Positions 2,993 through 42,092 of a DNA stretch of 64,000 bases are shown piece by piece (position 1 is the stretch's first letter; the number at the start of each line of letters is the position of its first letter). This stretch comes from a bacterium (GTDB lineage Bacteria > Patescibacteriota > Minisyncoccia > Phycocordibacterales > UBA6899), in NCBI GenBank assembly GCA_043756865.1, contig JAYUQG010000014.1, positions 2,349 through 66,348 of the forward strand. The letters are read 5' to 3'. The position numbers and the translations under genes were made by a program. Under the pieces are notes generated by a model that saw nothing but the letters and a program-made list of their open reading frames with translations, had not been told where the DNA came from and made no database searches.

Positions 2993-3074
2993 ATAATTAG
3001 GATACTGCAATTGTAACATGCACCACAAAATAAGATGCAAAAGAAGGATGTGGACGAGAAGTGGATATCCGCTC

Positions 3075-3215
3075 GGGATTATTCAAGCTGAAAGGCACAC
3101 GGTCGGCGCCTTCCGGCGAGCGCCGCCGTCACACTCGGGCAATTGCCCCATAAGAATGGGGACCAAGCCAATTGTCCTGCGTGAGACCTTTCAGCTTAAA
3201 TAATCCCTCGCTCCC
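3075..3215 (+). repeat. R1 structured repetitive element, copy 1 (candidate ncRNA or MITE-like element)
   Basis: core TGAAAGGCACACGGTCGG-hairpin-CCGCCGTCACACTCGG-hairpin-GACCAAGCCAATTGTCCTGCGTGAG-CCTTTCA closed by 11-bp inverted repeat AAGCTGAAAGG/CCTTTCAGCTT; two more copies at 10471..10608 and 31775..31880 whose internal hairpins have different sequences but preserved pairing. Confidence 0.55.
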
Positions 3216-3413
3216 GAGGTGAGAGTTAGCAATGTGTGGAGTCCCAAAACTTCATCATTCTCCTCGCTCCAAAGAAAAGAGCAAACAACTGTGCTGCGTG
3301 AGTGCTTTCATTTTGAACAGTCCTTCGCTCCAGAGGTGGGAGTTAACATTGTCGTCTGGAGTTCCAAAACTAGAACATTCTCCTCACTAAAAAGTACAGT
3401 GCTGGTGGCTGTG
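3167..3413 (+). repeat. imperfect tandem direct repeat (2 units of about 117-130 bp) duplicating the 3' tail of R1 copy 1
   Basis: unit a 3167..3283 and unit b 3284..3413 both start CTGCGTGAG.CCTTTCA....TCC.TCGCTCC.GAGGTG.GAGTTA..A.TGT...GGAGT.CCAAAACT..A.CATTCTCCTC.CT.AAAAG. Confidence 0.5.
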
Positions 3414-3429
3414 CTTTGTGTATTCTACT

Positions 3430-3562
3430 AAAAAACTTTCATAATTTTGATGGATTTCAGTTTTTTCGCGTCGGGAGTGTTTGAGAAGGTGTATGAGTTA
3501 TACATCATCCAAACCTTTCGACGATGAAAAAACTGAAAGGCGCAAAATTTGAAAGTTTTTTA
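3430..3562 (+). repeat. R2 structured element, copy 1 (nested inverted repeats), just past the stop of gene 3560..5467
   Basis: outer stem AAAAACTTTC (3431-3440) with GAAAGTTTTT (3551-3560); inner stem TTCAGTTTTTT (3456-3466) with AAAAAACTGAA (3527-3537); conserved GTGTATGAG, CCAAACCTTTC and ATTTTGATG blocks shared with copy 2 at 35054..35160. Confidence 0.5.
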
Positions 3563-5467
3563 CCAGTTGGCGCGCTCGCCGACAATACCTATAAGCGTAT
3601 TTTGACCTAAATAGTCACCAGAAAGTGTAATCGCTATGGGAACCGCGATGCCCCAATGTGTCGTACTTGATGCTTGCACACTAACGGAAGTTGATTTTGG
3701 AACGTTAAGCTCGATTTCGGCTCCTGGATTCGCAAGGAGTACCGTCGCTACTCCGTAGGCAAGTGTAGACGAGGCATATCTTTGGTTGGCGATAAAAATG
3801 GTTGAAGTTGCATTTCCAGAGCACGCTGCTGGGTAACCCGGACACATATTTACACCGTATAAAGTTTCATCCATTCCCACATTTCCCGCCGCGCGCAGTC
3901 CTGTTTGGTTTTGAGCTGTGTTTCCCACAGTGACTGTATCTTGCCCTGGTTGCAAACCTCCATAAGCGATAGTGGTAGTAGACACGGTGTATGCGAGAAA
4001 ACTTGTGAGCTCAGTACCTGATGTACTTTCAACGAGTGAGCTTGATGACGCATTGTCGTCGAATGCCCGAGCAGAGGCTAACCAGTTTTCTGCAAAATTC
4101 GGAGGATCTGTTGTGGGGACACCGTTACCATCCGTTGCTTCTGAAATATACCAAAGCGGAAATGTACAATCCCAAATGACATCTGAGTCTGTAGAACCGA
4201 GGCATGAAGTTGAACTTGCAACACAGTTCATGCTGTGCGTGGCAACAGTAGTCGTTGCAGGGCCAGGGTAACAATTGTTGGCATTATACTCCCCTGCTAT
4301 GTCGCAACCTGCCTGCGTTATTCCTGAGCGGTAAGTATTTGTGAACCCTGAAATAATCTCGCTTCCCGCAGCAAGATTCTGGCAACTATTCTGATCAGTG
4401 ACGGTGTATCGAACAGAAAATCCTTGCGTCTGAGTTGCAATGCCAGTAAGTGTGAGTGGTCCAGTCTGATCAGTATCAAGAAGTGAAATTGAAGCTGCAG
4501 CGATAGTTGGGGTCACATTGCTTACAAAAATCGAGGAATCCGCCCCCTGCGATCCCCCCGATGCCGCATGTGAACCGTGTTGGTCAATAATAAATCCAAA
4601 TGCCGTGTATGTTCCATCACGATAGGGAATCGCAAGCAATGTTGAAGTGGAAGGATTAGCTGCACTAAACGTGGATGTAGCCCACACTCCCCCTGGTCCG
4701 CAATTTGTGCCGGTAAAATCATTTGCACGGCAGACAAATAGTCTCACATCGTCTTGGTCAGCACCGATGTCCCCTGCGTATGTGTCAGTATCGGAGGAAG
4801 TTGCATAGAATATCACGGTACCACCCGGGTTTGTGGGGGAATTATCCATAAAAAAGGTAAATGTCGGGCGGTGGTTCACCACAAAAGGAGAACGCTCCCC
4901 CTCAGCACCGGGAGTGGTGGAACCTTGTCGAAATGCGGCATTGCAGGAGGCTCCGGGGCTTGTGCCGTCGCAAACCCAACCAAACCACGCATTAAACTCT
5001 GCGTTGAATTGCGAACCGATGCCTTCTGTTGTTGTGGTTGCAGCAGAAGCTCGAGCACCATTGGTGGTGGTTGCGGAAACCGCCCATTGGTTTGTATCGC
5101 CACCGTTACAATCGGGACGTCCGAGTGGACGTGGCGTGGGCAAGCCGCTTGTTTTGCAAATAAGTAGAAAGTAATTGTCGTTTGAAGAGTCGTTTGCTGA
5201 TCCTAGCCAAGTGATGACGCTTCCTGTATTTGTTGGTGTGGTTGTGGATGAAGGCGTGCTTTCATGTGCATCTTCAGCCCATTGCGGCGGAGTATTCAAT
5301 ACGGTAACTGAAGTAGTGGCTGAATCAGCCAATGCCACGTTCCCGCGGGGAATGTCCGCAACGAGCCCAAAACAAATAACAAATACGCCAAGTAGCGTTG
5401 TCGCGATACTGATTTTTCCCGTGATTGTGCTGTATCTTTCCCTCAACATATAGAAACTTAAGACCAT
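3560..5467 (-). CDS. large secreted Thr/Ser-rich hypothetical surface protein with N-terminal signal anchor
   Basis: 635-aa ORF; hydrophobic N-terminus ISIATTLLGVFVICFGLVA; many Cys pairs; no recognisable catalytic motif. Confidence 0.5.
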   Translation of the reverse strand: MVLSFYMLRERYSTITGKISIATTLLGVFVICFGLVADIPRGNVALADSATTSVTVLNTPPQWAEDAHESTPSSTTTPTNTGSVITWLGSANDSSNDNYFLLICKTSGLPTPRPLGRPDCNGGDTNQWAVSATTTNGARASAATTTTEGIGSQFNAEFNAWFGWVCDGTSPGASCNAAFRQGSTTPGAEGERSPFVVNHRPTFTFFMDNSPTNPGGTVIFYATSSDTDTYAGDIGADQDDVRLFVCRANDFTGTNCGPGGVWATSTFSAANPSTSTLLAIPYRDGTYTAFGFIIDQHGSHAASGGSQGADSSIFVSNVTPTIAAASISLLDTDQTGPLTLTGIATQTQGFSVRYTVTDQNSCQNLAAGSEIISGFTNTYRSGITQAGCDIAGEYNANNCYPGPATTTVATHSMNCVASSTSCLGSTDSDVIWDCTFPLWYISEATDGNGVPTTDPPNFAENWLASARAFDDNASSSSLVESTSGTELTSFLAYTVSTTTIAYGGLQPGQDTVTVGNTAQNQTGLRAAGNVGMDETLYGVNMCPGYPAACSGNATSTIFIANQRYASSTLAYGVATVLLANPGAEIELNVPKSTSVSVQASSTTHWGIAVPIAITLSGDYLGQNTLIGIVGERANW

Positions 5468-8370: not shown

Positions 8371-8502
8371 TAGCAGTCGCAAAATTTTGGATGGAATGCG
8401 AGGCGACAAGGGTATGATGTTTGAGCGGACGTACTCCTCGTACGTTCGCCAAACTCATGCCCGCAGTCAACAAAGCAGTCCGCCAAAATTTTGCGACTGC
8501 TA
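8371..8502. repeat. perfect 20-bp inverted repeat pair flanking a 92-bp spacer
   Basis: TAGCAGTCGCAAAATTTTGG at 8371-8390 and its exact reverse complement CCAAAATTTTGCGACTGCTA at 8483-8502; the right arm overlaps the stop codon of the ABC ATPase gene; the spacer carries its own imperfect hairpin GGACGTAC-TCCTC-GTACGTTC. Confidence 0.5.
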
Positions 8503-9828
8503 GTGGTGGGCTTCGCCGGTGCGTGGAATACCCAATGCAATCAACTTCTCAATCAACCTTGTCACATCAAACGACTGTTTCTTGTTTAACCCCACTCCCC
8601 CTTCTTTCGTGGAAAGTTCAATTTGTGCCGAAAATTCATCACGTTTTGTAAATCCGCCAATACGTTGCGCGATGAAGTCTTCAAAGTGTTGTTTTTCGGA
8701 AGGTGCGAGCGAAAGAGAGAACTGATCTGAAACAAATTCAGCAATACGGTTTATAAATTCCATGTCGCGGATCTGTGTCCCTATTGCATTCTTGCGTCGA
8801 CGAAAACGCTGAATATCGAGGGAATGCTCGACAACAGACATCAATTTTGAAGACATTTCTGATGCGCGTGCCACAGGAAGTCCGACTCCTCCGCTTTCAA
8901 AATCTGCCATGAGTATGCGCAGGTATGCTGAGCCATCCATACGTCCGGAAATAACTGCCTCAGTTACTTTTTGTAAGCGCATAATTTGATCAAAGGTCAA
9001 TTCCTCGATGAGGTAATTGACGATGCTCTTCACCTGCAGTTCGTTTGGTGAGTCATAGGGATAAATACGGGCAATCTGCTCAATCTCGGTGACTATTGTC
9101 GTACCGGGTGCAAGCTTGAGAATTTGTTTCTTTTCAGGGTTTGGCACAATACGCTCAATCTTTCCGTCTGCCATATACACAATGCGGTGAGCATATGGGA
9201 GGTACTTTGCATCGTGTGTCACAAGAATAACCGTCTTTTTATCTTTATCGTTTATCTCTGCAAGTGTATTCATAACCTGTGCCGCAGTGATGGAGTCAAG
9301 GTTTCCGACCGGCTCATCAGCAATCAAGATCTGTGGATCATTCACCAAGGAGCGTGCGACAGAAACGCGCTGCTGCTGTCCACCCGAGAGCAGTGTCGGA
9401 CGTTTGTTTGCAACGTGGTCAATCATAAAACGGCGACACAATTCCATGCCACGCTCATAACGCTCATTGGGAGCAACTCCGTCAAAAATAAGCGGAAGCG
9501 CAACATTGTCCAAGACCGTAATAGATGGAATAAGGTTAAACGACTGGTACATGATACCCATCGTCTTACGTTGAAAGTGCACCATCTGCATTGGCGTAAA
9601 GTCATAGATACTTTCACCATTCACGTACATCTTCCCCGCCGAAGGCTCCAGCACTCCGAACATACAATAGAGCAGGGTCGACTTTCCGCAACCAGATGGA
9701 CCGAAAAGAATGATGTATTCTTGGTCAAAAATCTCGACGGTAGCACCCTTATTTGCCTTGAATTCATTCTCCTTTCCAAGGTTATAGGTAATTTCAATCT
9801 GGTCTCCAAAAATAATCGGTTTTGCCAT
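8500..9828 (-). CDS. ABC transporter ATP-binding protein (MacB-type ATPase) with roughly 200-aa C-terminal extension
   Basis: Walker A GPSGCGKST, signature LSGGQQQRV, Walker B LIADEP; ATG at 9826-9828 (MAKPIIFGDQ) is preferred over the ORF-track start at 9858 because the conserved TATAAT motif sits between them. Confidence 0.6.
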   Translation of the reverse strand: MAKPIIFGDQIEITYNLGKENEFKANKGATVEIFDQEYIILFGPSGCGKSTLLYCMFGVLEPSAGKMYVNGESIYDFTPMQMVHFQRKTMGIMYQSFNLIPSITVLDNVALPLIFDGVAPNERYERGMELCRRFMIDHVANKRPTLLSGGQQQRVSVARSLVNDPQILIADEPVGNLDSITAAQVMNTLAEINDKDKKTVILVTHDAKYLPYAHRIVYMADGKIERIVPNPEKKQILKLAPGTTIVTEIEQIARIYPYDSPNELQVKSIVNYLIEELTFDQIMRLQKVTEAVISGRMDGSAYLRILMADFESGGVGLPVARASEMSSKLMSVVEHSLDIQRFRRRKNAIGTQIRDMEFINRIAEFVSDQFSLSLAPSEKQHFEDFIAQRIGGFTKRDEFSAQIELSTKEGGVGLNKKQSFDVTRLIEKLIALGIPRTGEAHH

Positions 9829-9838
9829 GGCTCCCTCT

Positions 9839-9844
9839 ATTATA
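9839..9844 (-). promoter_or_regulatory. -10 TATAAT box 10 nt upstream of the ABC ATPase start codon
   Basis: minus-strand reading GATTCTCTTCTATATAATAGAGGGAGCC-ATG. Confidence 0.4.
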
Positions 9845-9917
9845 TAGAAGAGAATCAAAACCTCCCATGGGGAAACCCACTTTTCATAAGTGCGCTACAG
9901 AATTAATGCACTTTGAT

Positions 9918-10376: not shown

Positions 10377-10470
10377 GCCGCATGATAGTCACCGATTACC
10401 TATCAAAGTTTCTAACGAACCACATGAAACAATACTAAGCTATAGTCTCCCACACACTCAAACGCCGACG

Positions 10471-10608
10471 CTCCTGAGCGAGGGATTCTTCTGTTTGAAA
10501 GGACTCACGCAGGACAATTGGCTTGGTCTCCATTCTGATGGAGCAATTGGCCGAGTGTGACGGCGGACTCCGCAGGAGAGTCCGACCGTGTGCCTTTCAC
10601 ACAGAAAA
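10471..10608 (-). repeat. R1 structured repetitive element, copy 2, on the sense strand directly after the stop of the FN3 gene
   Basis: minus-strand reading TGAAAGGCACACGGTCGG-ACTCTCCTGCGGAGT-CCGCCGTCACACTCGG-CCAATTGCTCCATCAGAATGGAGACCAAGCCAATTGTCCTGCGTGAGTCCTTTCA; closing stem CTGTGTGAAAGG/CCTTTCAAACAG. Confidence 0.55.
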
Positions 10609-10621
10609 ACCCCGAGCGGCC

Positions 10622-12121
10622 CTATTTTCCGATGTTCTTAACCCAGCCAAACTGCCCCTCAAAGTTCTCCAAAATAATATCAATAATTGACTTCTCTTTG
10701 TTCGGTGTAAATAACACAAAGTTTTCCGACTTCGTCTTGTTCTTTGCATCATCGCGGCACTCTACCCAGAACTGATATACAGTGGAAGGCAGAAACTCTA
10801 CAACGACCTGCACATGAGATGTGCGTGGCTCTTTTTCCTCGCCAAGCCCCGTCGCTTCAGTTGCAGGATTCAATCCTTCGCGGAAGTAGAACTGGCAATA
10901 CGACTCCTCATCGGTTCCCCATGACACGATAGTTTGCACTTTCGCATCAGCGGAGGGATACAACGTAGACTCGTTCGACACTTTAGAAATTATTGGGGGA
11001 GCAATGTCTTTTATGGTTGTGAAGAAAAGCTGATTCGAAGTGACCTTCTCCCCCACCGCATTTTCTGCTTTCACCACCGCACTATAACGCACACCGAGTG
11101 ACAGTCCCGCAATTTTGACCTGCTGTGACGACGAGAAAATCGGCGAACCAGCAGACTTTATCTCTCTGGTCTTAATATTGGTGTACTCGACAACACCTGA
11201 TGCAGGAATATTTGTACGCCACGTAAGCGTTGCGGAATCTTCTTCGACTTTCGCAACACGAAAATTGGTGATAGTCGGGAGCGCAGCCTTCGTGGTGAAT
11301 GCACTGTCGCGGGACACTCCCGTGAGTTGCAACTCACCCTCAGACGCAACTTGAAAATGGTAGGTCGTACCTGCAATAAGTCCTGTGACGCGCACTTCGT
11401 GATCTTTGATGCGCTCTCCCTCATCTCCCGACTCGGTAGTGTAGGGATCCTCTGCGTCGGGGTTGTATTCTGATTCACGCACATAACGCACCACCGAACT
11501 TGCGTCGAGGTCGGTCGCCCAGCTAATCACGGCATAGTCGCTTCCTACCTCTTTCACTCTCGGACTACCTATGATGCGCGGAGCCTCCAGAATTTTTTGT
11601 GCAACTTCACCAAGTTCTGCCGCAACCATACGTACACCCTCGGGAGTCTTCAGTTCTCTAATTGATGCAATCGCGCGCTCAATAACCATACGCTCTTCTG
11701 GGGGAATATCTTCAATATCTTTAATATTCATCACCGCCTTTGTCGCTAGCACGTAGTCGCCAGAAAGTGCCTGATTCCCACCATAATCCTGTGAGCCAAT
11801 ACGGATATGATAAAAAACGGAAGGCTCAAGATCATCCAGAAGGACGCGATGCTTTTTCTTGTTTGGAAGTGGGTCTCTCGCCACACCGTAATCTTTGGTG
11901 AGACCGAAATTCACCTCTGAATCTGCTTCTTCGTCAGTTTCCCATGTGATTAATGCGGAAGTGGCGGTGGGAGAAACAATCTGAATATTTGAGAGTTTTG
12001 GCGGAATCCCGTCTCCTGACACCTGCGCAAAGAGTGAGTGCGGACCGAAAAGTCCGTACCCAAAGAGGCCTCCCACGATTGTGAGGAGTAAAAATGACCC
12101 CAATGTGCGCATGCGCGACAT
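10622..12121 (-). CDS. secreted protein with four fibronectin type III-like repeats
   Basis: ATG at 12119-12121 (MSRMRTLGSFLLLTIVGG signal peptide); repeated ...TDEEADS..., ...YHFQV/YHIRI FN3-like units; promoter motif TCTCTATATAATAGAGAGAGT directly before the ATG. Confidence 0.55.
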   Translation of the reverse strand: MSRMRTLGSFLLLTIVGGLFGYGLFGPHSLFAQVSGDGIPPKLSNIQIVSPTATSALITWETDEEADSEVNFGLTKDYGVARDPLPNKKKHRVLLDDLEPSVFYHIRIGSQDYGGNQALSGDYVLATKAVMNIKDIEDIPPEERMVIERAIASIRELKTPEGVRMVAAELGEVAQKILEAPRIIGSPRVKEVGSDYAVISWATDLDASSVVRYVRESEYNPDAEDPYTTESGDEGERIKDHEVRVTGLIAGTTYHFQVASEGELQLTGVSRDSAFTTKAALPTITNFRVAKVEEDSATLTWRTNIPASGVVEYTNIKTREIKSAGSPIFSSSQQVKIAGLSLGVRYSAVVKAENAVGEKVTSNQLFFTTIKDIAPPIISKVSNESTLYPSADAKVQTIVSWGTDEESYCQFYFREGLNPATEATGLGEEKEPRTSHVQVVVEFLPSTVYQFWVECRDDAKNKTKSENFVLFTPNKEKSIIDIILENFEGQFGWVKNIGK

Positions 12122-12130
12122 ACTCTCTCT

Positions 12131-12136
12131 ATTATA
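12131..12136 (-). promoter_or_regulatory. -10 TATAAT inside the palindrome CTCTCTATATAATAGAGAGAG, 9 nt before the FN3 gene start
   Basis: minus-strand reading TCTCTATATAATAGAGAGAGT-ATG; the palindrome CTCTCTATA/TATAGAGAG could also be an operator. Confidence 0.4.
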
Positions 12137-12171
12137 TAGAGAGACCTCGTTCACGAAAAGGCACAACCCTC

Positions 12172-15100
12172 TTAATTCGCAATAAAGTAGTTAGTCCCCG
12201 AGTGTGTGGTTGCAGCCGTACCGTTTGGAACTCCAAGCCCCCAATACACGTCTTTAAAGAACGGGTTTGTCGACGTAGGCTTCGTCACGCCGATATTATA
12301 CGGATTACTCGTAGTTGCGAGGAGGTTACAACCCGCACATCCCGAATAGGTGAAGGTTGAAGTGGCATACTTCTGTTGGTTGACGGCAATTGTCGAAGAG
12401 GCTGCGGTCATCGGAGACCCTGACAACAAGAGATTCAAGATTGTATTTCCCGTGTTTGTCACTGTCGTTGTCGAATTTGCCGCACCCGTATCTGCGCCTA
12501 CGGTAATTGAGCCGTAGTTCAGGCTTGAAGGAATGGTCAGCCCCTTAAGTGTGTACACATCCTGTGATGAGGATGCTCGTGCATGCGAGTTCGACGTATC
12601 CCATACGTCGATGAGCGCCTGCCAGTTTTCCGCTACGAATGTACTTCCAAAGTCAGTTGGGTCTGCAAAGTAATACATATCCGCGGTGCATGAAACCGTA
12701 CAGGAGTTCCCTGAACAGTTAATAAAGCTACATGAACTGGTGCTGATTTGATAACAGTTATTGTTGTCGGCGGTGCAGGCTGTCGAAGAAGATAGTCCCG
12801 AACGGAAAAACGTTGAGGATGCAAAAGAGAGGTCTGCATAACCGTTGTAATCAGTAACAGTTGAAGTCGCAAAAATCGTCGTTGTGGCACCTTCCGTCAG
12901 TGCAATGCTTGCGTTGTTGTTGAATGAGAAATTAGAAAGGACTGGTGCATGCAAAATGCGCAACTCAGCAACCTTGGTGTAATTATCAAGTGCACTACCT
13001 GAATTGGTGGTACGGAAACAGTAGGCATCCTGTGACGCAAATGCCGTCATCTGGAAGTTATATTCCACTTCAGTAAATTCACCTGATGCAAGCGACACAT
13101 TGCCCGTTTGATTTGACGGGTCCTCAAGTATTTGGCCGTAAGTAAACGTTTGCCCCGTCGGGATAGACAGTAATTGTGTTGTCGAAGACTTGTCACTGAA
13201 CTGTGTAGATGTTTTCATACATGCAGCACCTGAGCCACAACCCGCTCCGGAAGTCGTGGGTACGTCAACATAGCTTCCCCCAGATACTGATTCACAATTC
13301 GGTGAAACCGACTTCGGTGCAACCTGTAGTCTGAAGTTATTATTGTTAATTGGTGCGCCCGAATTTCGCACGGTCACGCGGAGGCGGAGATTTTCGTTAA
13401 TGAGCTGATTTGCCAGTGTTGTATTTTCAGCTGTCTTCCATGTTGCACCAGAGTCCGCCTGTTCTAACCCAAATACTGCGCCCGGTGCCGTGGCAATGTA
13501 CTCTCGAGCAGACGGGATATCCCAGCCTCCATGCTGACCCCAATATGCAAATCCTATCCCACCTGACGTATATGAGGAATCTGTGGCAGATGTTGTGGCA
13601 AATACGCTACCTGCTGAGTCGTACACGGTCACATTAATTTGATTGTTCGAGAGCCAGTTGATCGATGCCTCATACCACCCTGTCGCGTATGTGACACTGG
13701 TTGTTGCAAGTTGCGTCGCTCCGTCATTGCGACCATTATTTGCCGCATTCTTTGCTATGACGACTTTATCTGTCCCCGAAAATGGGGTGAGGCACACAGC
13801 ATAATTTTGATGCAAAGTTATGGGAGATTGGATAGCGAAAAGAAAACACGGCTCATTGGATCCACCGGCTGCAATATCAATATACTGAAAGAACCTAATC
13901 GTAGTATCGCGCCCCACTCCAGCAGACATCTGCCCGATACCGTCGGTGGTCTTTCCTGAAGCCTCATTACCCAGAGAGGCATCAATGCCACGTGTACGCT
14001 CGTAATTAAAGGCTGTAGATTGCTCAAAAAGAGTAGTGTTTCCAGAATATTCTGACATACTTCCATCCTCGAAATCGTCAAAGAATTTGAACGTACTGGT
14101 GCCGCTGGTTCCTCCGGCTACCGTCGCATGGCCGTAGTACATAAAGATATCTGCCATACCGGAAGCAGGAAGTGCCGGTACTTTCACCCATACGGTTGAT
14201 GATGCTGCTGCAGTAAGGCTCTCTATCCAATACGGAATAGATGTCGTTCCGGACGAGTCCGTGAATCGTAAATCATCGAAGTCACTTTGCATATCAGAAT
14301 CGTAGACAACATTAAATTTCACCTCGATGTTTACCTCAGACGAGGTTGCGTTGTTGTTGATTCGCACGCGCTTACGCTTTGACCAATTTTGGTCATACCA
14401 TTCAGTCGAAGGAACACCCTCTGCTCCGTTGTCATTTCGCCATCGGTAAGTCCGCTGATCAGAGAACAGACATGAACTATCGGTCCATCGGATAGACCCA
14501 CATCCATCATTTCCGTCGTTATCACGGGACTCAAGCGCCATATTGCCGTATTCACTTGCAAAAGTGATGGCATTTGTTGTCGTACCGATACGCGAAACAT
14601 TTGCTCCTTCTATTGCTGTGGTTGTGGCAAATCGTACGTAGAATATTTGACCTGACGCATTTTGGTCTATGGTGGTTGACGCGATGGTGATCATGCTGCC
14701 ACCCGATAGTCCGAGCTCAAAGTCCCCGTTTGAGAGTGAGGTGATGGTCGTCGTGCCACTCATATCAAGTCCCGCGGTATTCATGTTTCGGAACTGATAG
14801 TACTGCGCATTGATGTATGAGGAGCTGAGTGAAAGCCCATAGTTACCTGTCGTCGCACGATCAACTGTTGTAGACGCCGTACTAATACCTAACATCTGGA
14901 GCGTTGATGCATTTGAGAATGCTGCAGCCGCAGAAGGACCAAACCGCACATTCACCTGACGCGAACTACCGCCGAGTGCGGTGCCGTCGAAATCGGTGGC
15001 GTAGCTCCAATAGTCGGTACCCGTTGTGCGCGTGTATGCTCCATAAATGTGGAGAGTACCATCCACCGCTGCATGGTCTTGTGCATACACCGAAGTACCC

Positions 15101-18100
15101 GTGCCAAGCTCGTATGCAGCTGCAGAAGAATTCCAGTTGCGCACTATCGTGTTTGTACCAAGACGGATTATGCCATAGAGGTCTCCACCTGCTGTTTTGC
15201 TGTTCATGTTCAAACTGGTGCCTGAGTTGAGTGCGAGTCGGGAACCACTCCACGTAGTGGAGGCACCACCCAGATTGTTGGTAAATATTCCTCCGACTGC
15301 AAGTGCAGAAGAAGATGCTTGGATGAAGTTTCCGCTTGCAATAGTCATACTTCCTGTTGTTGTCGCAGATGCAGAAATATTCACAGTCGCAGCAGGAGCT
15401 CCTGCGACATACACTCCCGTAAGCGTTGAATTTCCTAGTGCCACAAGCGACGTTCCTGAGGTAGGGTTGAATGTTACAAGCGACGTCGTGGCTACGGCAA
15501 TGGTACCCGTCGCGATAAATGACCCACCAACGGTAAATGCTGCATTGGGGAGCGTTGAAGTTCCTGATGCAAAAATGACGTCGCCGGTAGCTGTGGCATT
15601 CGTATCAGTAAATGTAAACGTTCCTACGTCTGCGATAAAGAGATTGGCAAGACTCGAGCCATTCATGCGTATGATTCTTCCCGACGATGTGGCAGTCATA
15701 CGAATAGTTCCTCCATTTGCTGTCACTCCCCCACTTTGATTGTTGAGGTCTGTTCCGATTGCGAGTACGCCCGTCGGTAGTGTCGTGGTGCCGTTTTTCA
15801 AAAGTACTGCCCCTGTTGCGGTTGCATTTGTATCGAGGAAGGACCACCCGCCTCCGACTCCATCGAATTCAAGGTTCGCAAACGCAGAGGTAAGAGCGCG
15901 GATATTTTTCCCCGTTGCGGTAGACGTAAATTTCACCACGCCGGAATTGTGCAAGAATACACCGCCAGAGTTATCAAAAGTCCCGCCCACGGCAAGCGTG
16001 CCCGATGGGAGTGTTGTGGTTCCCGCAGAGAAAGTAAGGTTATTCGAGGTAGTTCCGACACCACCAATATTCCATGTACCACCACTGCCGCTCATGGTCA
16101 TGTTGTAAAACGTGAGTGAAGATGATGCCGAAACAAACTTGCCTGTTGTCGATGCGTTAAAGAAAAATGTTGAATTCGCAGGTGCAACCGAAGCCCCGCT
16201 CGCTGCGTAGAAAGAGCCGGCCAGTGTGTGCGTCTGTGTACCCGCCGCACTCCACGTCGAACTTGCGTACAGTTTCACCGTACCATCACGATCACTGCCC
16301 AGTGCATTACCATGTACGGTTACATCCCCTGCAGGTGCAAAGACTTTGCTGGTCCAAACAATCAGTGTGGTGTTCGATGGAAGCACAAGCGTATCTGGTG
16401 CTCCGGTGGTTGCCTTGAAACGAATATCGGTGTCTTGGTCGGAATCGTATTGATTCATGTTTGCAATCGAAAGTGCTGTTCCTCCTTCGTGGCGCACAAT
16501 AACTCGATCGCGATAGAGATGCATGTTTGCGATATTTGTTGCGGGGTCAACCGTGACGTTTGCCGCGGTAGTTGAACTGTTGGTGTCGAGATAAAGTGTC
16601 AGCACATCCCCTGGGTTAAAGACGACACTCGAGATTGAAAAAGCTCCCGTCGTGGAATTACAAGCCGATGTATATGCTCCAGCACCCTGTACTCGCAGTC
16701 GTACCGTTTGGGTCGACCCATCACAGGTTGGACCACCAACAGGAGTAATTCCCTCATCACCATAAACGTTACCTGAAATGGTAATATTCGCGGCTGAGTC
16801 GTCCCACACAATGTAACCGGGATCACCCCCTGGGTCAGAGTCAAACGCTTCGCCCGCAAGCACACCGAGTGAGGTCGGAGTCCCCGCAAAACGCCAAATT
16901 GATGCTGAGACTCCGGTGGCCTTAACGTTAAACCCTGAGCCCACACCTGTTGAAGTCCCAAAATAATTACGACTGAATATCTTAAGGGGATTTGCATCAA
17001 TTGTCGCACCCGCAACGGTAATCATACTTCCAGCCGCAACCCCAAGTTCGAAGTCTACGTCATCCATGAGATTCACAACTGGTGTTCCCGAAAAATTGAG
17101 TCCATTTCCGTCCACCCCACGGAAGCGTACGTACTTCATAGTTGTCGAACCACCAGAAATATTGAGTGCGTAGGTACCGAGCGTTTGTATGCTAAGGCTT
17201 GTCGATGCAGTATTTGTCCCGAGTATTTCAAGAGCACCGGTACCGGAAATAGAGATACTTGAGGCAGTGGCAAAGCGCACATTTGCCTGACGCGAGCTAA
17301 CGCCAAGTGCGGTGCCGTCGAAATCAGTGGCGTAACTCCAATAGTCAGTGCCTGCGGTACGCGCGTACGACCCCCAAATATACAGTTCGCCTGAAGTACT
17401 CGCATGATTCTGTGAATACAGACTCCCCGTAGCTGCGACGGCGGTCGTTGTTGCCGACGAGGCCCACATGCTTATCTTTGTACTTCCCCCCACTTGGAGT
17501 GTTTCATAGCGGTCACCCCCAAGAGCCTTCGTGTTCATTGCTGAAGTGACTCCAGAGTTCAAGTAGAGAGTCGAGCCTGTCCACGTCGTTGCACTTCCGC
17601 CTACAGCGTTGGTAAATACACCGCGCACTTCAAGTGTTGTGCCCGATGCCATGACAAACGATGATACCTGTGTGATGGAGAAGTTATTCGTAGTGGTTGC
17701 ATTTCCGAGTATCGTCCATCCGCCGATTGCAGCATTAAATGCTGCATTGTAAAACGCTGATGTACTCGGTGTAATTGTGCGTCCAGTGGTAGTTGCGACA
17801 AAAGAAACGGTTCCTGCGGACGGGGTATATGTTCCCTGATTGTACCAGTCACGATAAATATTAAAGGCGGCGCTATCAGACCCAACCAATGTTGCACTGC
17901 TCCTAATAATGAGGTCACCTTCGACATTCACTATGGGGTCATTTGTGGTAACGGTGGTCGTTCCACTATTTACTCCATCCCCCACCGTTAGGCTATTTCG
18001 CACGGTAAATGTTCCTGCCGAAAGCGAATATGTCGGACCACCCGCTCCACTTGGCGCAAGATAGAGACGATAATAATTTGCCGCAGCAACCGTCGTATTT

Positions 18101-21100
18101 GCAGTCGAGCTAAATCGAAAAACGGAAACCTCAGGATTCAGTGTTCCCGTAATCACCAAGGGAGTGGCGCCTCCTGTCAAATTCCACGCAGAGGGAACAC
18201 CTGCGTTAAGTGTATGCCCAGCAGTGACCGTCATTATGGTGGCTATAGAGATTGTCGAAGAACCGGTCTTCGTCGTTGTGCCACCCGCACCATTTCCAAA
18301 ATTGAGGTTATTGAAACTCCAGTTCGTGTTCCCCCCAAAAGTGCCTCCATTTGCAAATGTGACACTACCACCCGTCATAGCGACTGTACCAGCTCCCGTC
18401 ATATTGACGCCAGAGATAGTCATCGAATTTGCACCAACGAGTGTTCCCTGTGTGACCGTCAAATCATTTCCCGTGTTTGTCGTTTGGTTTACTGACCACT
18501 CCCCGCCACTTCCATTAAACACGAGATTCCAGAAATTAATCGGCGTAATACCCACGAGCAACTTCCCTGTTGTGGTGGCAGTAAAGGTGAATGTCGAAGA
18601 TGCAGCCGTAAAGGTTGCTCCTGCATCAAGGGCGAACCGCCCACCTACCGAGTGTGATTCATTTCCCTGTGCAGTAAATATGGCATTGTTGTCGACGTGG
18701 AATGTACCGTCCCAGTTGTTTCCCGAACCACCGGAGTTCAGTGTGATATTGCCATTTGGAATAAAGGTTTTTGCATTCCAGACCCAAAATTCTGTTTCTG
18801 GATTCACTGCAAGCGTGTTGGGTCCCGTTGTTGCGGCAGAGTATGAAATATCACTGTCATTGCCCGCGTCATATGCATTCATGTGCTCAATCCCAAGTGC
18901 AGCGGTATCTTCGTGTCGGACAATCACGCGGTCTTGATAAAGATTAATGCCGGTTAAGTCCGCAGATGCAGACCTCGTAACCAACGTTGCTTTTCGCCCA
19001 CCGTTTGTATCGAGGTAAACGGTCATCACCGTATCTCCAATAAACGTCACCCCCGGTACCGTATAGGTACCGTTAGCTGACGAGCATGGTGCTGCAAAGT
19101 TGCCGAGCCCGTTCACTCTGACGCGCACATTTGGTGTCACGTTATCACATGTTGTTGTGGACATCGGGGTTACGCCGGCGTCGCTATAAACCGTTCCTGA
19201 AATGGAGATGACAAAAATACTGTCGTCCCATCTTATGTATCCGGGGTTACCGCCAGGATCATTGTCATTGGACTCTCCTGCAATATTTCCATAATGCTGC
19301 CTAAAACGGATGAATGATGATCCCGCCGGAGTTCCGATTTCTGTAACGTTAAATGCCAAAATCGCTGTGGTTGTTGCAAACCGCACGGTGAACAGTTGAA
19401 TTCCGGTGTTCTGGTCGACGGTCGTCGACGCAATGGTGATTCCACTACCGCCATTCGTAGCAACTTCAAAATCTCCATAAGACAGTGAGGTGACGGTTGT
19501 TGTACCCGCAAGCTCAAGTCCGCGCGCACCCATGTTTCTAAACTGATAATAATTCGCATTCAAGGTTGCGTCTGAAAGTGCAACGACAAAACTTCCCGTT
19601 GTTGCGCGGTCTATGGTGGTTGAAGCGGTCGTGGATCCGATTATTTGGAGAGTTGCATTTGTGGTAAAGCTGGAAGTTGCGGTGGGTGCAAAGCGTACAT
19701 TTACCTGTCTTCCACTCCCCCCAAGTGCAGTGCCGTCAAAATCTGTCGCAAAACTCCAGTAGTCTGTTCCCGTTGTGCGAATATAGTTCCCACCAATAAA
19801 GAGCGAGCCATCTAATGCACTATCATCTTGGGAATACATCGACGACGTAGGGGTGAACTGGTACGTATTGCTCGAAGAATTCCACATGCGTACATTTGTC
19901 CCCAGAGCGAGACGCAGTGTCGCATAGCTATCGGCGCCTGTTGTTTTTGTATTCAGTGTGTAGCTCGTGCCCGAATACAGTGTGAGTGTAGTGCCGGTCC
20001 ACGTCGTCGAAGCACCACCGACATTATTGGTGAACGTACCTCCAACTGCAAGTGCAGTTGCCGTGGCCTGCGTGAAACCACCGGAAATAAGTGTAAATGC
20101 CGCCGTTGCCGTGGCGTTCCCGGTAATGCTTATGGTTGCAGTTGGCGTCGCGAGCACATTCACCGTTGCAAATGTTGAAGGTCCCGCAGAAACAGTTTTT
20201 GTTCCTGAAGCAGGGTTAAAATGTACCGCTCCGGACCCGGAAACAAATGCTCCAGTGGCTGAGAAGTTTCCTCCAATCGCAAAATTCGCCGTGGGTAATG
20301 TTGTGGTGCCCGCGGCAAATATTACATCACCTGTGGCGGTCGCGTTTGCGTCGGCAATTGTAAATCCGCCTGCGTTCGCGACAAAAAAGTTTGCAAGTGT
20401 TGAGCCGGAGAGGCGCACGATGCGGCCGGAAAGCACCGAGGTCATGCGCAGTGTTCCTCCGTTTGCAACGAATGCTCCTGATTGATTATCAAAGGTATTT
20501 CCCGCTTCGAGTGTTCCACTTGGCAATGTGGGTGTACCTGCAGTGATATAAAATGTTCCCACCGTGGTTGCATTTGTATCTTGGAATGTCCAAGCACCTC
20601 CAGCGCCAGCAAATAATATGTCATTCCACAACGAACCGTTCGCGCGCACATTTTTGCCCGATGCGGTGGAGGTGAAGCGTACAACACCGGAATTGTGGAC
20701 GAACGCCCCTGCTGTGTTTGAGAATGATCCCCCTATCGCCAGAGTTCCTGAGGGTAACGTAGTAGTTCCTACACCTGTAATTGCGAAATCATTGGTTGTG
20801 GTTGCATTGGTGTTCTGCCAAATCCATGTCCCTCCTACGCCACTAAAGGTCGTGTTGTAAAAATTCGATACACCTTGGTTTATTGTTTTGCCGGTTGTTG
20901 TTGCAGCAAAATCAACGGTACCCGTAAGTGAGGTAAAGGTTCCCGTGTTGTTCCAATTTTCCAGCACCGTCAATGTGTATGCGCTGCCGGCAGAAAGTGT
21001 GTCATCTGCTCCTATTACAATGTTTGTGGCCTTCACCGAGGATCCGAGTGTGAGCGTTTTTGCGGTACCATTGACCACCACATTCCCGAGGTCCTGCTTT

Positions 21101-31589: not shown

Positions 31590-31628
31590 TCCAGTATCCC
31601 CAAGAACAAACATAGGTCTCATAGTTGA

Positions 31629-31656
31629 ACCCGCCACAAGGCGGGTTTTGTTTTCT
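31629..31656 (+). terminator. rho-independent terminator between convergent genes
   Basis: ACCCGCC-ACAA-GGCGGGT followed by TTTTGTTTTCT. Confidence 0.6.
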
Positions 31657-31774
31657 ATAATAAATTACTCAATGTATTAAACGTTGCAAAATAAGACTTT
31701 TTAATAGTTAGTATGCCAACTATTTCAATTACAATGATTTGTCCTTGCACGAGCCTAACACTGGCCCTACGAGA

Positions 31775-31880
31775 GAGGGTCTGACGCATGGCAATCGGCT
31801 TGGTCACCGTTCTGACGATGCTATCATTCGAGTGCGACAACTGCGCCCGTAGGGGGCGCCGATTGTGTGTCTTTCAAAAG
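31775..31880 (-). repeat. R1 structured repetitive element, copy 3 (diverged), on the sense strand after the stop of the cohesin gene 31885..33372
   Basis: minus-strand reading TTGAAAGACACACAATCGG-CGCCCCCTACGGGCG-CAGTTGTCGCACTCGA-...CATCGTCAGAACGGTGACCAAGCCGATTGCCATGCGTCAG; both hairpins keep pairing with different sequence. Confidence 0.5.
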
Positions 31881-31884
31881 GGGC

Positions 31885-33372
31885 CTACATGAGGAGTTTG
31901 CGGACGTCTTCCACTTCTTTGGACAACAATTCCTCCGAAAGATCGATGGCCTCATTCATATTCTCCATCACTTCCCTGTCCTGTGCTGAGGGATTAGGCT
32001 TCTGGAAAAGCATACCTGCCTGCTCGCCCACTTCCTCGCGGAGTGCCGCAAAGATATTGCCCATGTTGTCGCGCAGTTCATCAGCCTCGCGTTTTGCAAC
32101 ATATTTTTCTCTTCGGAACATTTTTCGCTCATACCATAGATATCCGAGGAGGAAGGCGATAAATGCCACTAGTCCTATGTCAATAAAGAGTCGCCAGTCA
32201 GTTGGTTTTGGCTCGCCCTCTTCTGCAGACTTTTTCGTTGATGGCTCTTCACCCTCGATGGTATATTTTCCTTCAGCAGAGGTGCTATTCCCCGCCTTAT
32301 CAAACACATTGAGCACAAGCGTATGTTTGCCTGGCTCTTGTTCTGAAAGCGTGTATTCACCATTTTTCACCTCGACAAGAGCGACCTTGGTGGGTGGATT
32401 ACCATCAATAGCTATTTCGTAACGATCAAGCTGTGAGAGTGTATCGGTGGCCTGAAACTTAATTATGACCTCAGTAGATGATGCTGGCACCGAAAGATCA
32501 AGTGTGAAAGGTTCGGGAGGGGTCTTGTCCACGAGTATCTTTTTGTGTGCGGTTGGCCCCGCGCCTGCTTCGTTGACATAGCGTAAATGAAAATACATCA
32601 CTCCGTCAGTGAGCTGGTCAAATTCCTTCTCGTCTATTGCGGGGTCGTAGCTCGTTGTGGGCACGGTCTTGTCTTTCGTATCCAAACTCATACGCACCAC
32701 TGTGACATCAAGTGGGGGCTCCCACTTAAACATTGCCTTCGATAAATTGTAATAAAACTTCTCATCGAGGTGGGTAGTTGAAGTGACGTCAGGAATATCA
32801 GGTTTGGGTATAAGTACCGACGGTGGAGTGGGTGGGGGCGGAGGGGGTGGGTCTCCCGCTGCTGCGGTATTAATAGTGTATTCGCCGCCAAGCCAGAGGT
32901 CTTTAGCGGTAAGTTCGGTGCCTTTACCATCTGCAGCAAGGACGGTGCCTTCTACAAAAGACACCTTTGCTACTCCTTCCTTGAGAGCCTTAAACGTAAT
33001 CGATAGAATATTTTTCTTCCCTGATATTGCGGGTGGCGTTTTTCCTCCAGCAAAACTAATAGTTCCCGCAGTCGAGTCGGTTGCTGGTTCTTCTGGCCAA
33101 AGTGAAAACGCAGAATTATTTTTAGACAATCCCTGAACAGAAAGCAGTTCTTTGTCATAGGAAAGTTTTCCACCTCCAGAACCAAACTCCTTGGTGGATT
33201 CAATAACAATTTGTACAGTAAAGGTCTTCCCTAGACCGTAAGCACCGGTGGCGGGTGAAATCGACATAGTCGCACCAGTTGTCTGCGCGAGCGACAAGGA
33301 AGGTGCTGCAACGAGTGCGAGCATCAAACCTGCCGTAATCAACCGCATACGAAAAGTGCGAGAAATTATCAT
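31885..33372 (-). CDS. membrane-anchored cohesin-domain scaffold-like protein: signal peptide, cohesin, Pro-rich linker, Ig/FN3-like domain, TM, cytoplasmic coiled-coil tail
   Basis: cohesin-like N-terminus MSISPATGAYGLGKTFTVQIVIE...LSYDKELL...SLWPEEP...ISFAGG paralogous to the 1..700 product; PPPPPPPTPP linker; TM LFIDIGLVAFIAFLLGYLWY; charged C-terminal tail. Confidence 0.55.
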   Translation of the reverse strand: MIISRTFRMRLITAGLMLALVAAPSLSLAQTTGATMSISPATGAYGLGKTFTVQIVIESTKEFGSGGGKLSYDKELLSVQGLSKNNSAFSLWPEEPATDSTAGTISFAGGKTPPAISGKKNILSITFKALKEGVAKVSFVEGTVLAADGKGTELTAKDLWLGGEYTINTAAAGDPPPPPPPTPPSVLIPKPDIPDVTSTTHLDEKFYYNLSKAMFKWEPPLDVTVVRMSLDTKDKTVPTTSYDPAIDEKEFDQLTDGVMYFHLRYVNEAGAGPTAHKKILVDKTPPEPFTLDLSVPASSTEVIIKFQATDTLSQLDRYEIAIDGNPPTKVALVEVKNGEYTLSEQEPGKHTLVLNVFDKAGNSTSAEGKYTIEGEEPSTKKSAEEGEPKPTDWRLFIDIGLVAFIAFLLGYLWYERKMFRREKYVAKREADELRDNMGNIFAALREEVGEQAGMLFQKPNPSAQDREVMENMNEAIDLSEELLSKEVEDVRKLLM

Positions 33373-35053: not shown

Positions 35054-35160
35054 AAAAACTTTTACGATTTTGATGCAATTCAGTTTTTCATGAGGAAAGT
35101 GTATGAGAGGACGTATACGGATACGTCCTCCAAACCTTTCTGAAATAAAAAACTGAAGAG
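35054..35160 (+). repeat. R2 structured element, copy 2, 20 nt past the stop of the dockerin gene 35180..36922
   Basis: stem TTCAGTTTTT (35079-35088) with AAAAACTGAA (35148-35157); central perfect hairpin GAGGACGTAT-ACGG-ATACGTCCTC (35107-35130); shares ATTTTGATG, GTGTATGAG and CCAAACCTTTC blocks with copy 1. Confidence 0.5.
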
Positions 35161-35179
35161 CGCGGAAATAACCCTTTGA

Positions 35180-36922: not shown

Positions 36923-36996
36923 ATCTATATTATAACAGAGGCACACAAGTTAGTACCGCGTCCACAGAGCTCCTATCCCGATAACACACATGCACA

Positions 36997-37866
36997 CTAG
37001 CGTGCACACCGAAATCCAACTGCAACACCGATAAATGACGGCTGAATCGTCGCGTTGATCGCATATATCCCCGCCTTTTCCTCCATCGACCAAAACCCCC
37101 CACGAAACATAGCACGTACTCCAGTAGACTCAATAAACCAGTGGTCACCACCAAACGTGTCTTGTGGCATGCTTCCGGTTGTGATGGGGACACCCCCAAG
37201 ATCGGCTTCACTCACGTATCCCTCAGTCGGAAGCGTGCGGTTGGAGTAGACTCCATCTGCCACCTCTGCATCAACCCATTCCCACACGTTTCCCACCATG
37301 TCGTAAGTTCCGTACGAAGACACACATGCATCATGACTTCCTGTATTGTCCGCACGTGCCTGCCCTGCGCGACCAAGCGCGCACTGTTTTTTGTCTTTGG
37401 AAACAGCGTCGGGGGTTCCCAAGGCGGCGCGGTACCACTCCTCGGGTGTTGCAAGATGTTTACCCGCACGGGCACACATGGACATCGCCTGGTGAAGCGA
37501 GATATTCACCCAAGGACGCTGGCCGGAATTCGATACAGCTCCACACTTTGGCTGCGCTATGTTTTCGTTTGTCTCAAATTGATTCAGTGGATCTTTGTGT
37601 CCACAAAACTCACCTGACGCAGCCTCATAGCGGTCAATGCAGAATCCACCCCCACCGCTAACAAATACCATATCGCTGGGACATTTTTCTTCAGTTATAC
37701 TGCCTCCCACACCAGCCAAAAGTGATACACCAGGGATGCGAAACGTATCACTTGCTTCAATAGCAAGTGTGGTGAGCACAATTGCTCCTCCCAATACAAC
37801 AATACTTTTCCATACGGAAACGGTTCGTTGCTTTTGCCGAGGAGGAGGAAGTCTCGTCGCATTCAT
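36997..37866 (-). CDS. membrane-anchored FGE/SUMF1-fold (formylglycine-generating-enzyme family, C-type-lectin-like) protein
   Basis: N-terminal TM; hallmark YDMVGNVWEWVD, RGGFWS and C-terminal GFRCAR motifs of the FGE-sulfatase domain. Confidence 0.6.
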   Translation of the reverse strand: MNATRLPPPRQKQRTVSVWKSIVVLGGAIVLTTLAIEASDTFRIPGVSLLAGVGGSITEEKCPSDMVFVSGGGGFCIDRYEAASGEFCGHKDPLNQFETNENIAQPKCGAVSNSGQRPWVNISLHQAMSMCARAGKHLATPEEWYRAALGTPDAVSKDKKQCALGRAGQARADNTGSHDACVSSYGTYDMVGNVWEWVDAEVADGVYSNRTLPTEGYVSEADLGGVPITTGSMPQDTFGGDHWFIESTGVRAMFRGGFWSMEEKAGIYAINATIQPSFIGVAVGFRCAR

Positions 37867-37905
37867 GAGTGTATTATACGTGATGTATCACCAAAGTGGC
37901 GCCTG

Positions 37906-42049: not shown

Positions 42050-42092
42050 ACTGCAACATGTTTGTGTTTGTCCTCTGTTTCCCCTGCTAGTA

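Follow-up and report, generated by a model that had tools for sequence, protein, structure and literature searches.

The ERIC (IRU) elements of enterobacteria, the bcr1 elements of the Bacillus cereus group and the Correia, BOX and RUP repeats are ~100–200 nt long, present in multiple copies, extragenic and found in either orientation. Repeats of the ERIC type are often co-transcribed at the ends of genes, mutations in their long terminal pairing are compensated, they are distributed patchily among relatives, and partial copies of them occur. REP elements are hairpins of ~35 nt that carry a conserved head of the GTAG type and are associated with a RAYT gene, and a role in stabilizing the 3′ ends of mRNAs has been proposed for REP and BIME sequences. 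For PATEs and for the guide-RNA scaffolds of TnpB and IscB, copies may stand without a protein gene. To our knowledge, almost no regulatory RNAs have been described in the Candidate Phyla Radiation (CPR), the members of which have tiny genomes. We analyzed a stretch of bacterial DNA of 64,000 nucleotides (the window) that contains three copies of a structured element, here called R1. R1 is best read as a dispersed structured repeat, selected at the RNA level and situated either in 3′ UTRs or on its own, for which we infer a mechanism below.

The initial annotation had described the three copies, and searches with models of R1 recovered them at roughly the same positions (c1, c2 and c3; Table 1). 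The blocks of sequence that it reported as shared are exact in c1 and c2, but c3 carries the variants TGAAAGACACACAATCGG, GTCGCACTCGA and GACCAAGCCGATTGCCATGCGTCAG. Its hairpins were correct apart from a bulged A in the 3′ arm of hairpin 1 in c1, as was its covarying closing stem apart from one G/A mismatch in c2. The unit itself proved to be longer than described, however; conserved flanks (5′ CCGCTCGGG and 3′ CCCTCGCTC) and then a small purine-loop hairpin lie outside the extent first given. The core measures ~145 nt and the element with its tail ~185 nt. The most conserved block, the 25-nt GACCAAGCCRATTGYCNTGCGTNAG, has exactly three sites in the window at up to 3 mismatches, with a shuffle expectation of 0.00, and c1 and c2 were also called as inverted repeats of each other (107 nt at 83% and 38 nt at 84%). 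From 5′ to 3′ the core of c1 consists of CCGCUCGGG, the closing stem P1, a three-way junction with P2 and P3, and CCCUCGCUC. When folded individually and compared with dinucleotide shuffles, c1 (−68.8 kcal/mol, z = −6.0) and c2 (−63.8 kcal/mol, z = −5.4) adopted the same shape; between them, both partners had changed in seven base pairs without loss of pairing, a change in one partner alone occurred in no pair, and three pairs were broken. The fold of c3 on its own was no better than that of its shuffles (z = −0.84), with a closing stem that is only degenerate. Compensatory changes have kept P2 and P3b in this copy, whereas P1 and P3a are degenerate. The decay of c3 shows that not every copy is maintained.

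Table 1. Positions in the window of R1 copies, their tails and flanking box, and copies of the S2 element.
Feature	Position	Strand	Context	Score or basis
Tandem box GTGGAC-N5-GTGGATAT, DnaA-box-like	3050..3068	+	1 nt upstream of c1	
R1 copy c1, core	3069..3213	+	Stand-alone; antisense between two minus-strand genes	156 bits (R1 model), 142.6 bits (R2 model)
c1 tail: CCUCG/CGAGG hairpin with SD-like GAGG, then GAGUUAGCAAUGUGUGGAG	3214..3286	+	Second CCTCGCTC motif at 3262	Tail comparison across copies
Unit B, tandem 3′ partial copy of R1	3287..3345	+	Behind the c1 tail	nhmmer 3′-module profile, E = 0.0014
S2 copy	3424..3562	-	Directly after the stop of gene 3560-5467 (-); convergent with the transcript direction of c1	nhmmer E = 4e-23
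S2 copy	8380..8492	-	Directly after ABC ATPase gene 8500-9858 (-)	nhmmer E = 5e-17
c2 tail: CGCU/AGCG hairpin with AGGAG-type loop, then GCGUUUGAGUGUGUGGGAG	10446..10475	-		
R1 copy c2, core	10476..10619	-	Sense; begins 2 nt past the stop codon of FN3-domain gene 10622-12166 (-)	162.9 bits (R1 model), 150.4 bits (R2 model)
R1 copy c3, divergent	31751..31896	-	Begins at the stop codon of cohesin-domain gene 31885-33372 (-)	90-97 bits (R1 and R2 models)
S2 copy (repeat family D12)	35054..35171	-	Directly after gene 35180-36946 (-)	nhmmer E = 1e-8

The consensus fold of R1 is a three-way junction formed by the closing stem P1, the hairpin P2 and a two-part arm, P3. P1 has 3 + 13 pairs (16–21 bp) and an A/U-rich inner part (UUUUGAAAG/CUUUCAAAA); P2 has 11 pairs and a UCCNGCG loop; and P3 is built from a basal helix with an invariant G-U pair, a middle helix, a conserved asymmetric internal loop (GACCAAGCC) and an apical hairpin. 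In an alignment of 14 distinct copies, fitted to a covariance model that favors the structure, 41 of the 45 predicted pairs showed at least one double compensatory change, including all 13 pairs of the P1 closing stem, the arms of which differ between copies yet stay complementary. Standard pairs occupied 91.1% of the cells in this model-fitted alignment, as compared to 66.5% ± 1.2 after shuffling of the 3′ partners (none of 500 shuffles reached the observed value), and pairing fell to 34–52% when the register was slid by 1–3 columns. An independent MAFFT/RNAalifold analysis of five sequences recovered this fold as well, and 13 of its 46 pairs were compensated; covariation was also computed on a set of 11 sequences. 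Even between c1 and its positional orthologue in locus L007, in which 52 of 90 paired columns differ, 23 pairs were compensated. The selection on an RNA (or DNA-hairpin) fold for which the initial annotation had argued from three copies is thus borne out by doubly changed pairs in members from several genomes, and we are highly confident that R1 is a real family selected for its structure. G-U pairs were about as frequent as A-C mismatches once the invariant G-U was set aside, and pair types by themselves therefore prove neither the strand nor whether RNA or single-stranded DNA is the selected form. Every stem covaries, and the near-invariant bases are nearly all unpaired: besides the internal loop of P3, these are the junction strands CACA, CUCGG and CUGCG..AG and the flanks CGCUCGG and CCUCGCU.

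R1 did not match any cataloged family. A scan of the whole window with Rfam 15 (4227 models), a step that the initial annotation had proposed, gave no match at the gathering threshold; a permissive scan of the window, L001–L003 and L007 at E up to 5–10 gave only snoRNA and miRNA matches at chance level, none of them common to the R1 copies. The families without a match include hammerhead, twister, pistol, hatchet, HDV-like, HEARO, Y-RNA-like, 6S, SRP and the riboswitches. ARAGORN predicted no tRNA or tmRNA in the window. The earlier view that this is not a known common RNA therefore holds, and literature searches brought up no account of an element of this kind in Parcubacteria; R1 is a genuine, previously uncataloged family of structured RNA. 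The core has no consistent reading frame and was rejected as coding, with stops in all frames in c1, c3, L010 and the first L002 copy (L002a), and open frames that differ among copies. An integron attC site was rejected for want of cassette arrays and of a consistent GTTRRRY, a fragment of a retron or group II intron for want of a reverse-transcriptase gene and a domain V motif, and a TnpB/IscB guide RNA for want of such genes nearby.

A covariance-model search, also suggested at the outset, yielded more copies in related genomes, partly at orthologous positions. A scan of a genome collection recovered a full copy and a 3′ partial copy in the metagenome-assembled genome 'bacterium GFS_1518' (L001 and L002), and a pattern scan of metagenomes recovered one true copy (L003) and two chance matches (L004 and L005); the patterns used in both scans were biased to one subfamily (A, below), and the range and copy number seen are limited accordingly. 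Covariance models built from five and then from 11 copies were run on syntenic loci of relatives, and the five-copy model revealed, in L001 and L002, another three copies of far greater divergence. In all, 17 copies were found in the loci examined, in both orientations and all intergenic: three in the window and 14 in L001, L002, L003, L007 (=8, 9), L010, L016 (=17, 18), L023 (=24) and L033 (weak). Searches of 21 kb from each of L012, L013, L019 and L021 found none. BLAST searches of phage and plasmid collections with c1 and a strict search of viral contigs with the 25-nt pattern returned no R1; a looser three-block pattern gave 22 matches in viral contigs, approximately the chance number, all of which were rejected by the model. 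Homologues of the ABC ATPase in the window place its source in the Parcubacteria, near Ca. Lloydbacteria, and within the data searched R1 is confined to Ca. Lloydbacteria-like Parcubacteria, a small lineage of ultra-small groundwater bacteria within the CPR.

The copies fall into two placements. Five start 0–3 nt past a stop codon, in the sense orientation: c2 and L023 1137 (behind FN3 genes), c3 (a cohesin-domain gene), L001 2732 (an ABC-2 permease) and L016 14719 (a 621-aa gene). Eight others stand alone between genes, each 1–5 nt behind GTGGATA(A/T) or GTGGACAA, so that these loci abut the arrangement GTGGAY-N5-GTGGATAA, of which GTGGATAA matches the DnaA-box consensus TGTGGATAA. In 267 kb there are 45 GTGGAYAW boxes; seven of them lie 1–5 nt upstream of the 5′ end of a same-strand R1, where ~0.02 would be expected; the eighth box-associated copy, L002b, is at the edge of its locus and outside this count. 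An upstream half-box (GTGGAC, GGGGAC, GTGGAT or GTGGAA) precedes the main box in six stand-alone copies, with a spacing of 11 nt in c1, L007, L010, L016 and L023 and of 9 nt in L002a. The box is kept in the alignment of c1 orthologues and is absent from all five post-stop copies. This split is as expected if R1 must be transcribed on the annotated strand, the post-stop copies by read-through from the gene before them and the stand-alone copies from their own box-associated sites, and we infer from it that the strand matters. The box next to c1 may be a promoter or a regulator site of stand-alone copies. No sigma-70 promoter was predicted at R1, and GTGGATAA was rejected as a -10 or -35 hexamer after no consistent partner hexamer was seen by eye. 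In L013 a box lies 6 nt upstream of a perfect TATAAT, which makes it look more like a regulator's site than part of a core promoter. A cluster of five boxes lies at 41906-42039. The idea that the DnaA-box cluster marks a replication origin was rejected; neither GC skew nor gene orientation switches there, and the skew turns near 58–60 kb.

The neighbors of R1 are unrelated to one another (FN3, cohesin, ABC-2 permease and DEAD helicase genes, and unknowns). Copies lie either behind a stop codon or in antisense or convergent orientation relative to the adjacent genes, and some form convergent pairs (L001 2732/2948 and L016 14719/14915). They do not lie upstream of a recurrent class of same-strand gene, and on this ground a riboswitch or cis-regulatory 5′ leader was rejected. 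At the end of R1 in c1, c2 and L007 no terminator was predicted on the R1 strand, and R1 has no U-tract, which leaves termination by R1 itself unsupported; the sole terminator-like site, on the tail hairpin of c1 (3206-3219), lies on the opposite strand.

Comparison of orthologous positions in relatives showed that R1 is both inherited and turned over. The slot of c1, between a 62x-aa gene and a ~350-aa gene and antisense to both, is filled with position and orientation conserved in the window, L007/8/9 (15799-15951), L010 (18525-18678), L023 (12427-12569) and L016 (14915-15022), the last of which has lost P3; it is empty in L013–15, L019 and L021. Conservation of this slot across relatives points to vertical retention under structural selection. 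The slot of c2 has an orthologous post-stop copy at L023 1137-1290. Sequence subfamilies are out of step with slot orthology. Subfamily A (78–90% identity) unites c1, c2, L003 and L001 2948, and its members are 84–90% identical between the window and GFS_1518, the syntenic proteins of which (L002) share only 41–54%; subfamily B (78–87%) unites the c1-slot copies of L007 and L010 with the c2-slot copy of L023; and identity between c1 and the L007 copy at the orthologous position is only 51%. R1 is thus shown to be a dispersed repeat: its structure persists even as single copies arise, disappear, are exchanged and undergo partial duplication (see below).

The search for empty sites also brought to light a second structured element of ~130 nt, S2, located right after the stop codon of the FN3 gene in relatives. 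S2 is a rod-like hairpin flanked by an A-run and a U-run, with conserved GCGC and UGCAUC motifs and an apical GUAC..GUAC hairpin, and in its consensus fold 27 of 36 pairs show double changes. It follows many genes in all of the related genomes and has three copies in the window (Table 1); the slot of the copy behind the ABC ATPase gene is also filled in L007, L010, L016, L021 and L023. At three gene ends, R1 alternates with S2, the hairpin that usually fills the post-stop position in this lineage. The 3′ end of the FN3 gene carries R1 in the window and L023 and S2 in L007, L010, L016, L021 and L013; that of the cohesin gene carries R1 (c3) in the window and S2 in L031 and L033; and that of the 62x-aa gene carries R1 in L016 and S2 in the window, L007, L021 and L023. 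R1 thus substitutes for S2 in these slots and is not inserted beside it.

Beyond the core, the tails of R1 form hairpins with purine-rich AGGAG or AGGA loops, sometimes in tandem, and lack U-runs. Behind the c1 tail lies unit B, which is made up of CUGCGUGAG, a stretch like the 3′ strand of P1, CCUUCGCUCC and a purine-loop hairpin, with a more degenerate repeat beyond it to ~3420. The repeated 3′ module comprises the J3/1 strand CUGCGNAG, the 3′ strand of P1, CCUCGCUY, the purine-loop hairpin and GCGUUGGGG. By profile search, one or two extra modules follow four of the 14 full copies and occur nowhere else in the loci examined; the architecture of unit B recurs after L002 2881-2987, L002 7841-7990 and L023 1137-1290. 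Behind L007 15799-15951, CTCGCT motifs at a spacing of ~56 nt were seen by eye, without a profile match. These partial copies share their 3′ ends and vary in their 5′ break points, which fall at CUGCGNAG in three and at GACCAAGCC or the 3′ strand of P1 elsewhere.

Based on these results we propose that R1 would enter the RNA pool either at the very start of the 3′ UTR of the gene upstream or as RNA that arises from the box-associated stand-alone loci. P1 together with the junction would make up a compact fold that resists nucleases and is probably bound by a protein; this fold would define or protect the 3′ ends of transcripts, and a small RNA may be processed out of it. The role of R1 would be analogous to that of the S2 hairpins that it replaces, and gene conversion or duplicative replacement would account for the exchange of copies between slots. 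We assign a probability of about 0.45 to this functional reading, in which the RNA of the annotated strand is a 3′-end or stable-RNA module that probably binds protein and is interchangeable with S2. The near-invariant junction bases exceed the needs of a simple stabilizer hairpin, which suggests a specific role involving a ligand, a protein or catalysis; they are the main feature that a plain stabilizer leaves unexplained and keep the more interesting readings alive.

One such reading is that the copies are genes for trans-acting small RNAs, for example protein-binding or sponge RNAs with the three-way junction as their core, the stand-alone loci being the real genes and the post-stop copies being derived from 3′ UTRs. 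The unpaired junction bases and the UCCNGCG loop of P2 are kept in all subfamilies, the synteny of the c1 locus is conserved together with the adjoining box, and the AGGAG/AGGA loops of the tails recall binding sites of the CsrA type or anti-SD sites. Against it, R1 is patchy among close relatives, being absent from the four 21-kb loci above, and some copies are degenerate (c3, L016 14915 and L033); moreover, no partner protein or target was found, and neither a promoter nor a terminator was predicted. We therefore consider trans action unlikely, if well worth keeping in mind.

A different reading, in which R1 is selfish, non-autonomous mobile DNA of the MITE, PATE or REPIN type, would have a transposase encoded elsewhere read the fold as single-stranded DNA and insert the element beside GTGGATAA boxes, immediately downstream of stop codons or within S2 hairpins. 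The number of copies, their occurrence in both orientations and in convergent pairs, and the 3′ partial copies with common ends are all in keeping with mobility, as is the close identity of subfamily A across genomes with diverged proteins. Presence and absence at orthologous sites, as is typical of MITEs, was observed for the three post-stop slots and the c1 slot. The sequence CGCTC flanks nearly all copies on both sides, and positions 42031-42050 of the window (GTGGATAACCACGCT), a syntenic site, could be an empty site. CGCTC is, however, invariant, and similarity continues for 30–40 nt past the 3′ one, so that it does not represent an ordinary target duplication; no target-site duplication that varies among copies was seen. 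Likewise, the closing stem covaries and is not conserved in sequence, which argues that it is not a terminal repeat bound by a transposase. No gene for a transposase, TnpA, RAYT, TnpB or a reverse transcriptase is present in the ~270 kb of loci examined, R1 is absent from the viral, phage and plasmid collections, and the c1 slot has been inherited vertically with compensatory evolution. The initial annotation had put forward a small ncRNA family or a structured MITE. A MITE in the strict sense does not fit, given the covarying terminal repeats and the missing variable target duplication, yet the family does behave as a dispersed repeat with gain and loss. Purely selfish DNA thus seems to us rather improbable.

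The two ideas may also be combined. R1 could be a new functional RNA, either self-cleaving or guiding or binding a dedicated protein, that is in addition mobile in a site-specific manner, as a module peculiar to the CPR; its targets would be the positions beside GTGGATAA sites and the nucleotides immediately following a stop codon, from which it would displace the resident S2. We regard this joint proposal, targets included, as quite a long shot. Less plausible still is a small self-cleaving ribozyme of a new class, or an RNA with some other catalytic activity or with a ligand. In favor of this, the three-way junction is compact and its stems covary freely around unpaired bases that hardly vary; with multiple copies, no fixed gene partner and tandem partial units, R1 also behaves in the genome as hammerhead, twister and pistol ribozymes of bacteria typically do. 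No Rfam model of a ribozyme or riboswitch matched, however, inspection revealed no pseudoknot between the junction strands and no cleavage-site signature, and most copies lack the same-strand downstream gene that a riboswitch would control; a catalytic or ligand-binding R1 is accordingly very doubtful. Hardly credible, finally, is a 5′ leader of a short downstream ORF (in c1 an MCGVPKL... mini-ORF behind an SD-like GAGG sequestered by CCUCG): although the tails contain anti-SD/SD-like hairpins followed by AUG, UUG or GUG, and a GVPK motif recurs in c1, the c1 duplicate and L007 with changes that are mostly third-position (one, Leu to Val, is first-position), the putative peptides range from 5 to 71 aa and are unrelated between copies, so that the tail mini-ORFs were rejected as coding, c2 encodes MCGRL and then a stop, L010 has no equivalent peptide, and many copies have no ORF before the convergent gene.

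Whichever role R1 has, this lineage keeps two covariation-supported families of ~130–150 nt exactly at the 3′ ends of genes, one of them, R1, associated with a box as well. If R1 is truly a 3′-end or stability module, or a protein-binding RNA, it would represent an RNA-based layer of expression control in organisms that cannot yet be grown on their own. If it is truly mobile, it would be among the first small structured repeats to be characterized in the CPR and a marker of recombination between CPR genomes. With the R1 covariance model, the family can be searched for in all CPR genomes and metatranscriptomes.

With regard to known systems, R1 is like ERIC, bcr1, Correia, BOX and RUP in size, copy number, extragenic sites, compensated pairing, patchiness and the occurrence of partial copies, a likeness of behavior. 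Multi-copy, extragenic, found in both orientations and compensated in structure, it has these features in common with the ERIC/bcr1-like elements taken as a functional class. It differs from them in having a three-way junction with near-invariant junction bases where they have a simple imperfect palindrome, in starting 0–3 nt past stop codons or abutting a GTGGATAA box, and in having no variable target duplication. With REP/BIME and REPIN sequences it shares a location in 3′ UTRs or between convergent genes, inverted pairs and compensated hairpins, but it is four times longer than a REP and branched, and no RAYT or IS200-like gene is present in any locus. S2 occupies the same slot directly after the stop codon; however, S2, a rod with an A-run and a U-run, resembles a long bidirectional terminator, whereas R1 is branched and lacks a U-tract. 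PATEs derived from IS200/IS605 and the TnpB/IscB guide scaffolds are, like R1, structured and strand-specific and may abut a fixed flank; in contrast to these, R1 has no TnpA, TnpB or IscB nearby, HEARO gave no match, and a scaffold-plus-guide organization is not evident. Covarying stems, conserved junction bases and a narrow range are features that R1 has in common with orphan three-way-junction motifs of Rfam, from which it departs in that it is not a 5′ leader, is multi-copy and has copies that turn over. Taken together, the behavior of R1 is closest to that of ERIC, bcr1, Correia and REP/BIME, and its architecture is closer to that of the orphan structured ncRNA motifs.

Divergent from c1, a stand-alone copy of the structured repeat R1, lies a gene for a signal-peptide/TM protein of ~350 aa, which is served by an extended -10 promoter, TGnTACAAT, at window 3010-3018 (minus-strand reading TGTTACAAT). 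The motif is conserved in the related loci L007, L010, L016, L019 and L023, and ordinary sigma-70 signals are therefore in use in this lineage. R1 itself, unlike this neighbouring gene, is without them. Mini-ORFs lie 3′ of the copies in the c1 slot in the window and in L007 (see table); they share only their MC..GVPK(L/V) start, the remainder being unrelated. Differences within this start are mostly at third positions, with one first-position change, Leu to Val, and the equivalent at the second copy, c2, reads MCGRL and then stops. The likeness probably reflects nucleotide-level conservation of the R1 tail (UGUGUGGAG) rather than of a peptide. An ordinary G+C-rich hairpin (AAAACCCGCCTTGTGGCGGGTT) is found between convergent genes at 31628-31646, ~110 nt downstream of the third copy, c3; a conventional terminator, separate from c3, therefore serves the 3′ UTR in which this copy lies.

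L033 has an R1-like copy at 3146-3291 (-), a weak one of 21.7 bits, lying antisense and flanked by a TldD/PmbA gene and an HSP20 gene. It retains CCGCUCGG, hairpin P2, arm P3 and GACCAAGCC, while the closing stem P1 is ruined, which suggests that decayed copies are more numerous than the models report. The stretch GTGGATAACCACGCT at 42031-42050 of the window may be either an empty R1 site or a 5′ remnant. Five DnaA-box-like 9-mers (TGTGGATAA, at most one mismatch) cluster at 41906-42039 (+), all on a single strand and partly spaced by 21 nt, in the intergenic region between genes 40583-41758 (-) and 42093-43403 (-); in the syntenic intergenic region of L002, an R1 copy comes after boxes of a similar kind. 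Neither GC skew nor gene orientation switches at the cluster, and the GC skew of the window turns near 58-60 kb.

The window also holds a giant ORF of 6246 aa (12172-30912, -) with internal repeats of ~2.3-4.7 kb (families D2, D8-D10). Its size (6160-6253 aa) and position, with the FN3 gene coming after it, are conserved in all related loci, where the counterparts are DUF2341 / LamG-like. Large internal or tandem duplications were also observed in a 1790-aa ORF (44827-50199, -), with units of ~1.78 kb (46478-48360 vs 48263-50010), and as a 909-nt repeat (37003-38350) that extends across two neighbouring genes, 36997-37866 and 37906-38841.

The second structured family, S2, forms a rod-like hairpin of ~130 nt that starts immediately 3′ of stop codons and is bracketed by an A-run and a U-run. 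GCGC and UGCAUC motifs are conserved, the apical hairpin is GUAC..GUAC, and double changes occur in 27 of the 36 pairs. S2 had no match in Rfam. It is probably an elaborate bidirectional terminator or 3′-UTR element of the lineage.

S2 copies and c1-slot mini-ORFs in the window and related loci
Feature	Locus	Position	Strand
S2	window	3424-3562	-
S2	window	8380-8492	-
S2	window	35054-35171	-
S2	L007	8206-8342	
S2	L007	11325-11456	
S2	L007	15070-15209	
S2	L010	5909-6049	
S2	L016	9429-9569	
S2	L021	8413-8557	
S2	L021	15956-16093	
S2	L023	11101-11240	
S2	L031	2118-2229	
S2	L033	5525-5650	
mini-ORF	window	3232-3390	+
mini-ORF	L007	15521-15736	-

Compared with R1, S2 shows a weak likeness at the junction beside the closing stem, GC(A/G)CAC ... 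CUGC(G/A)U.
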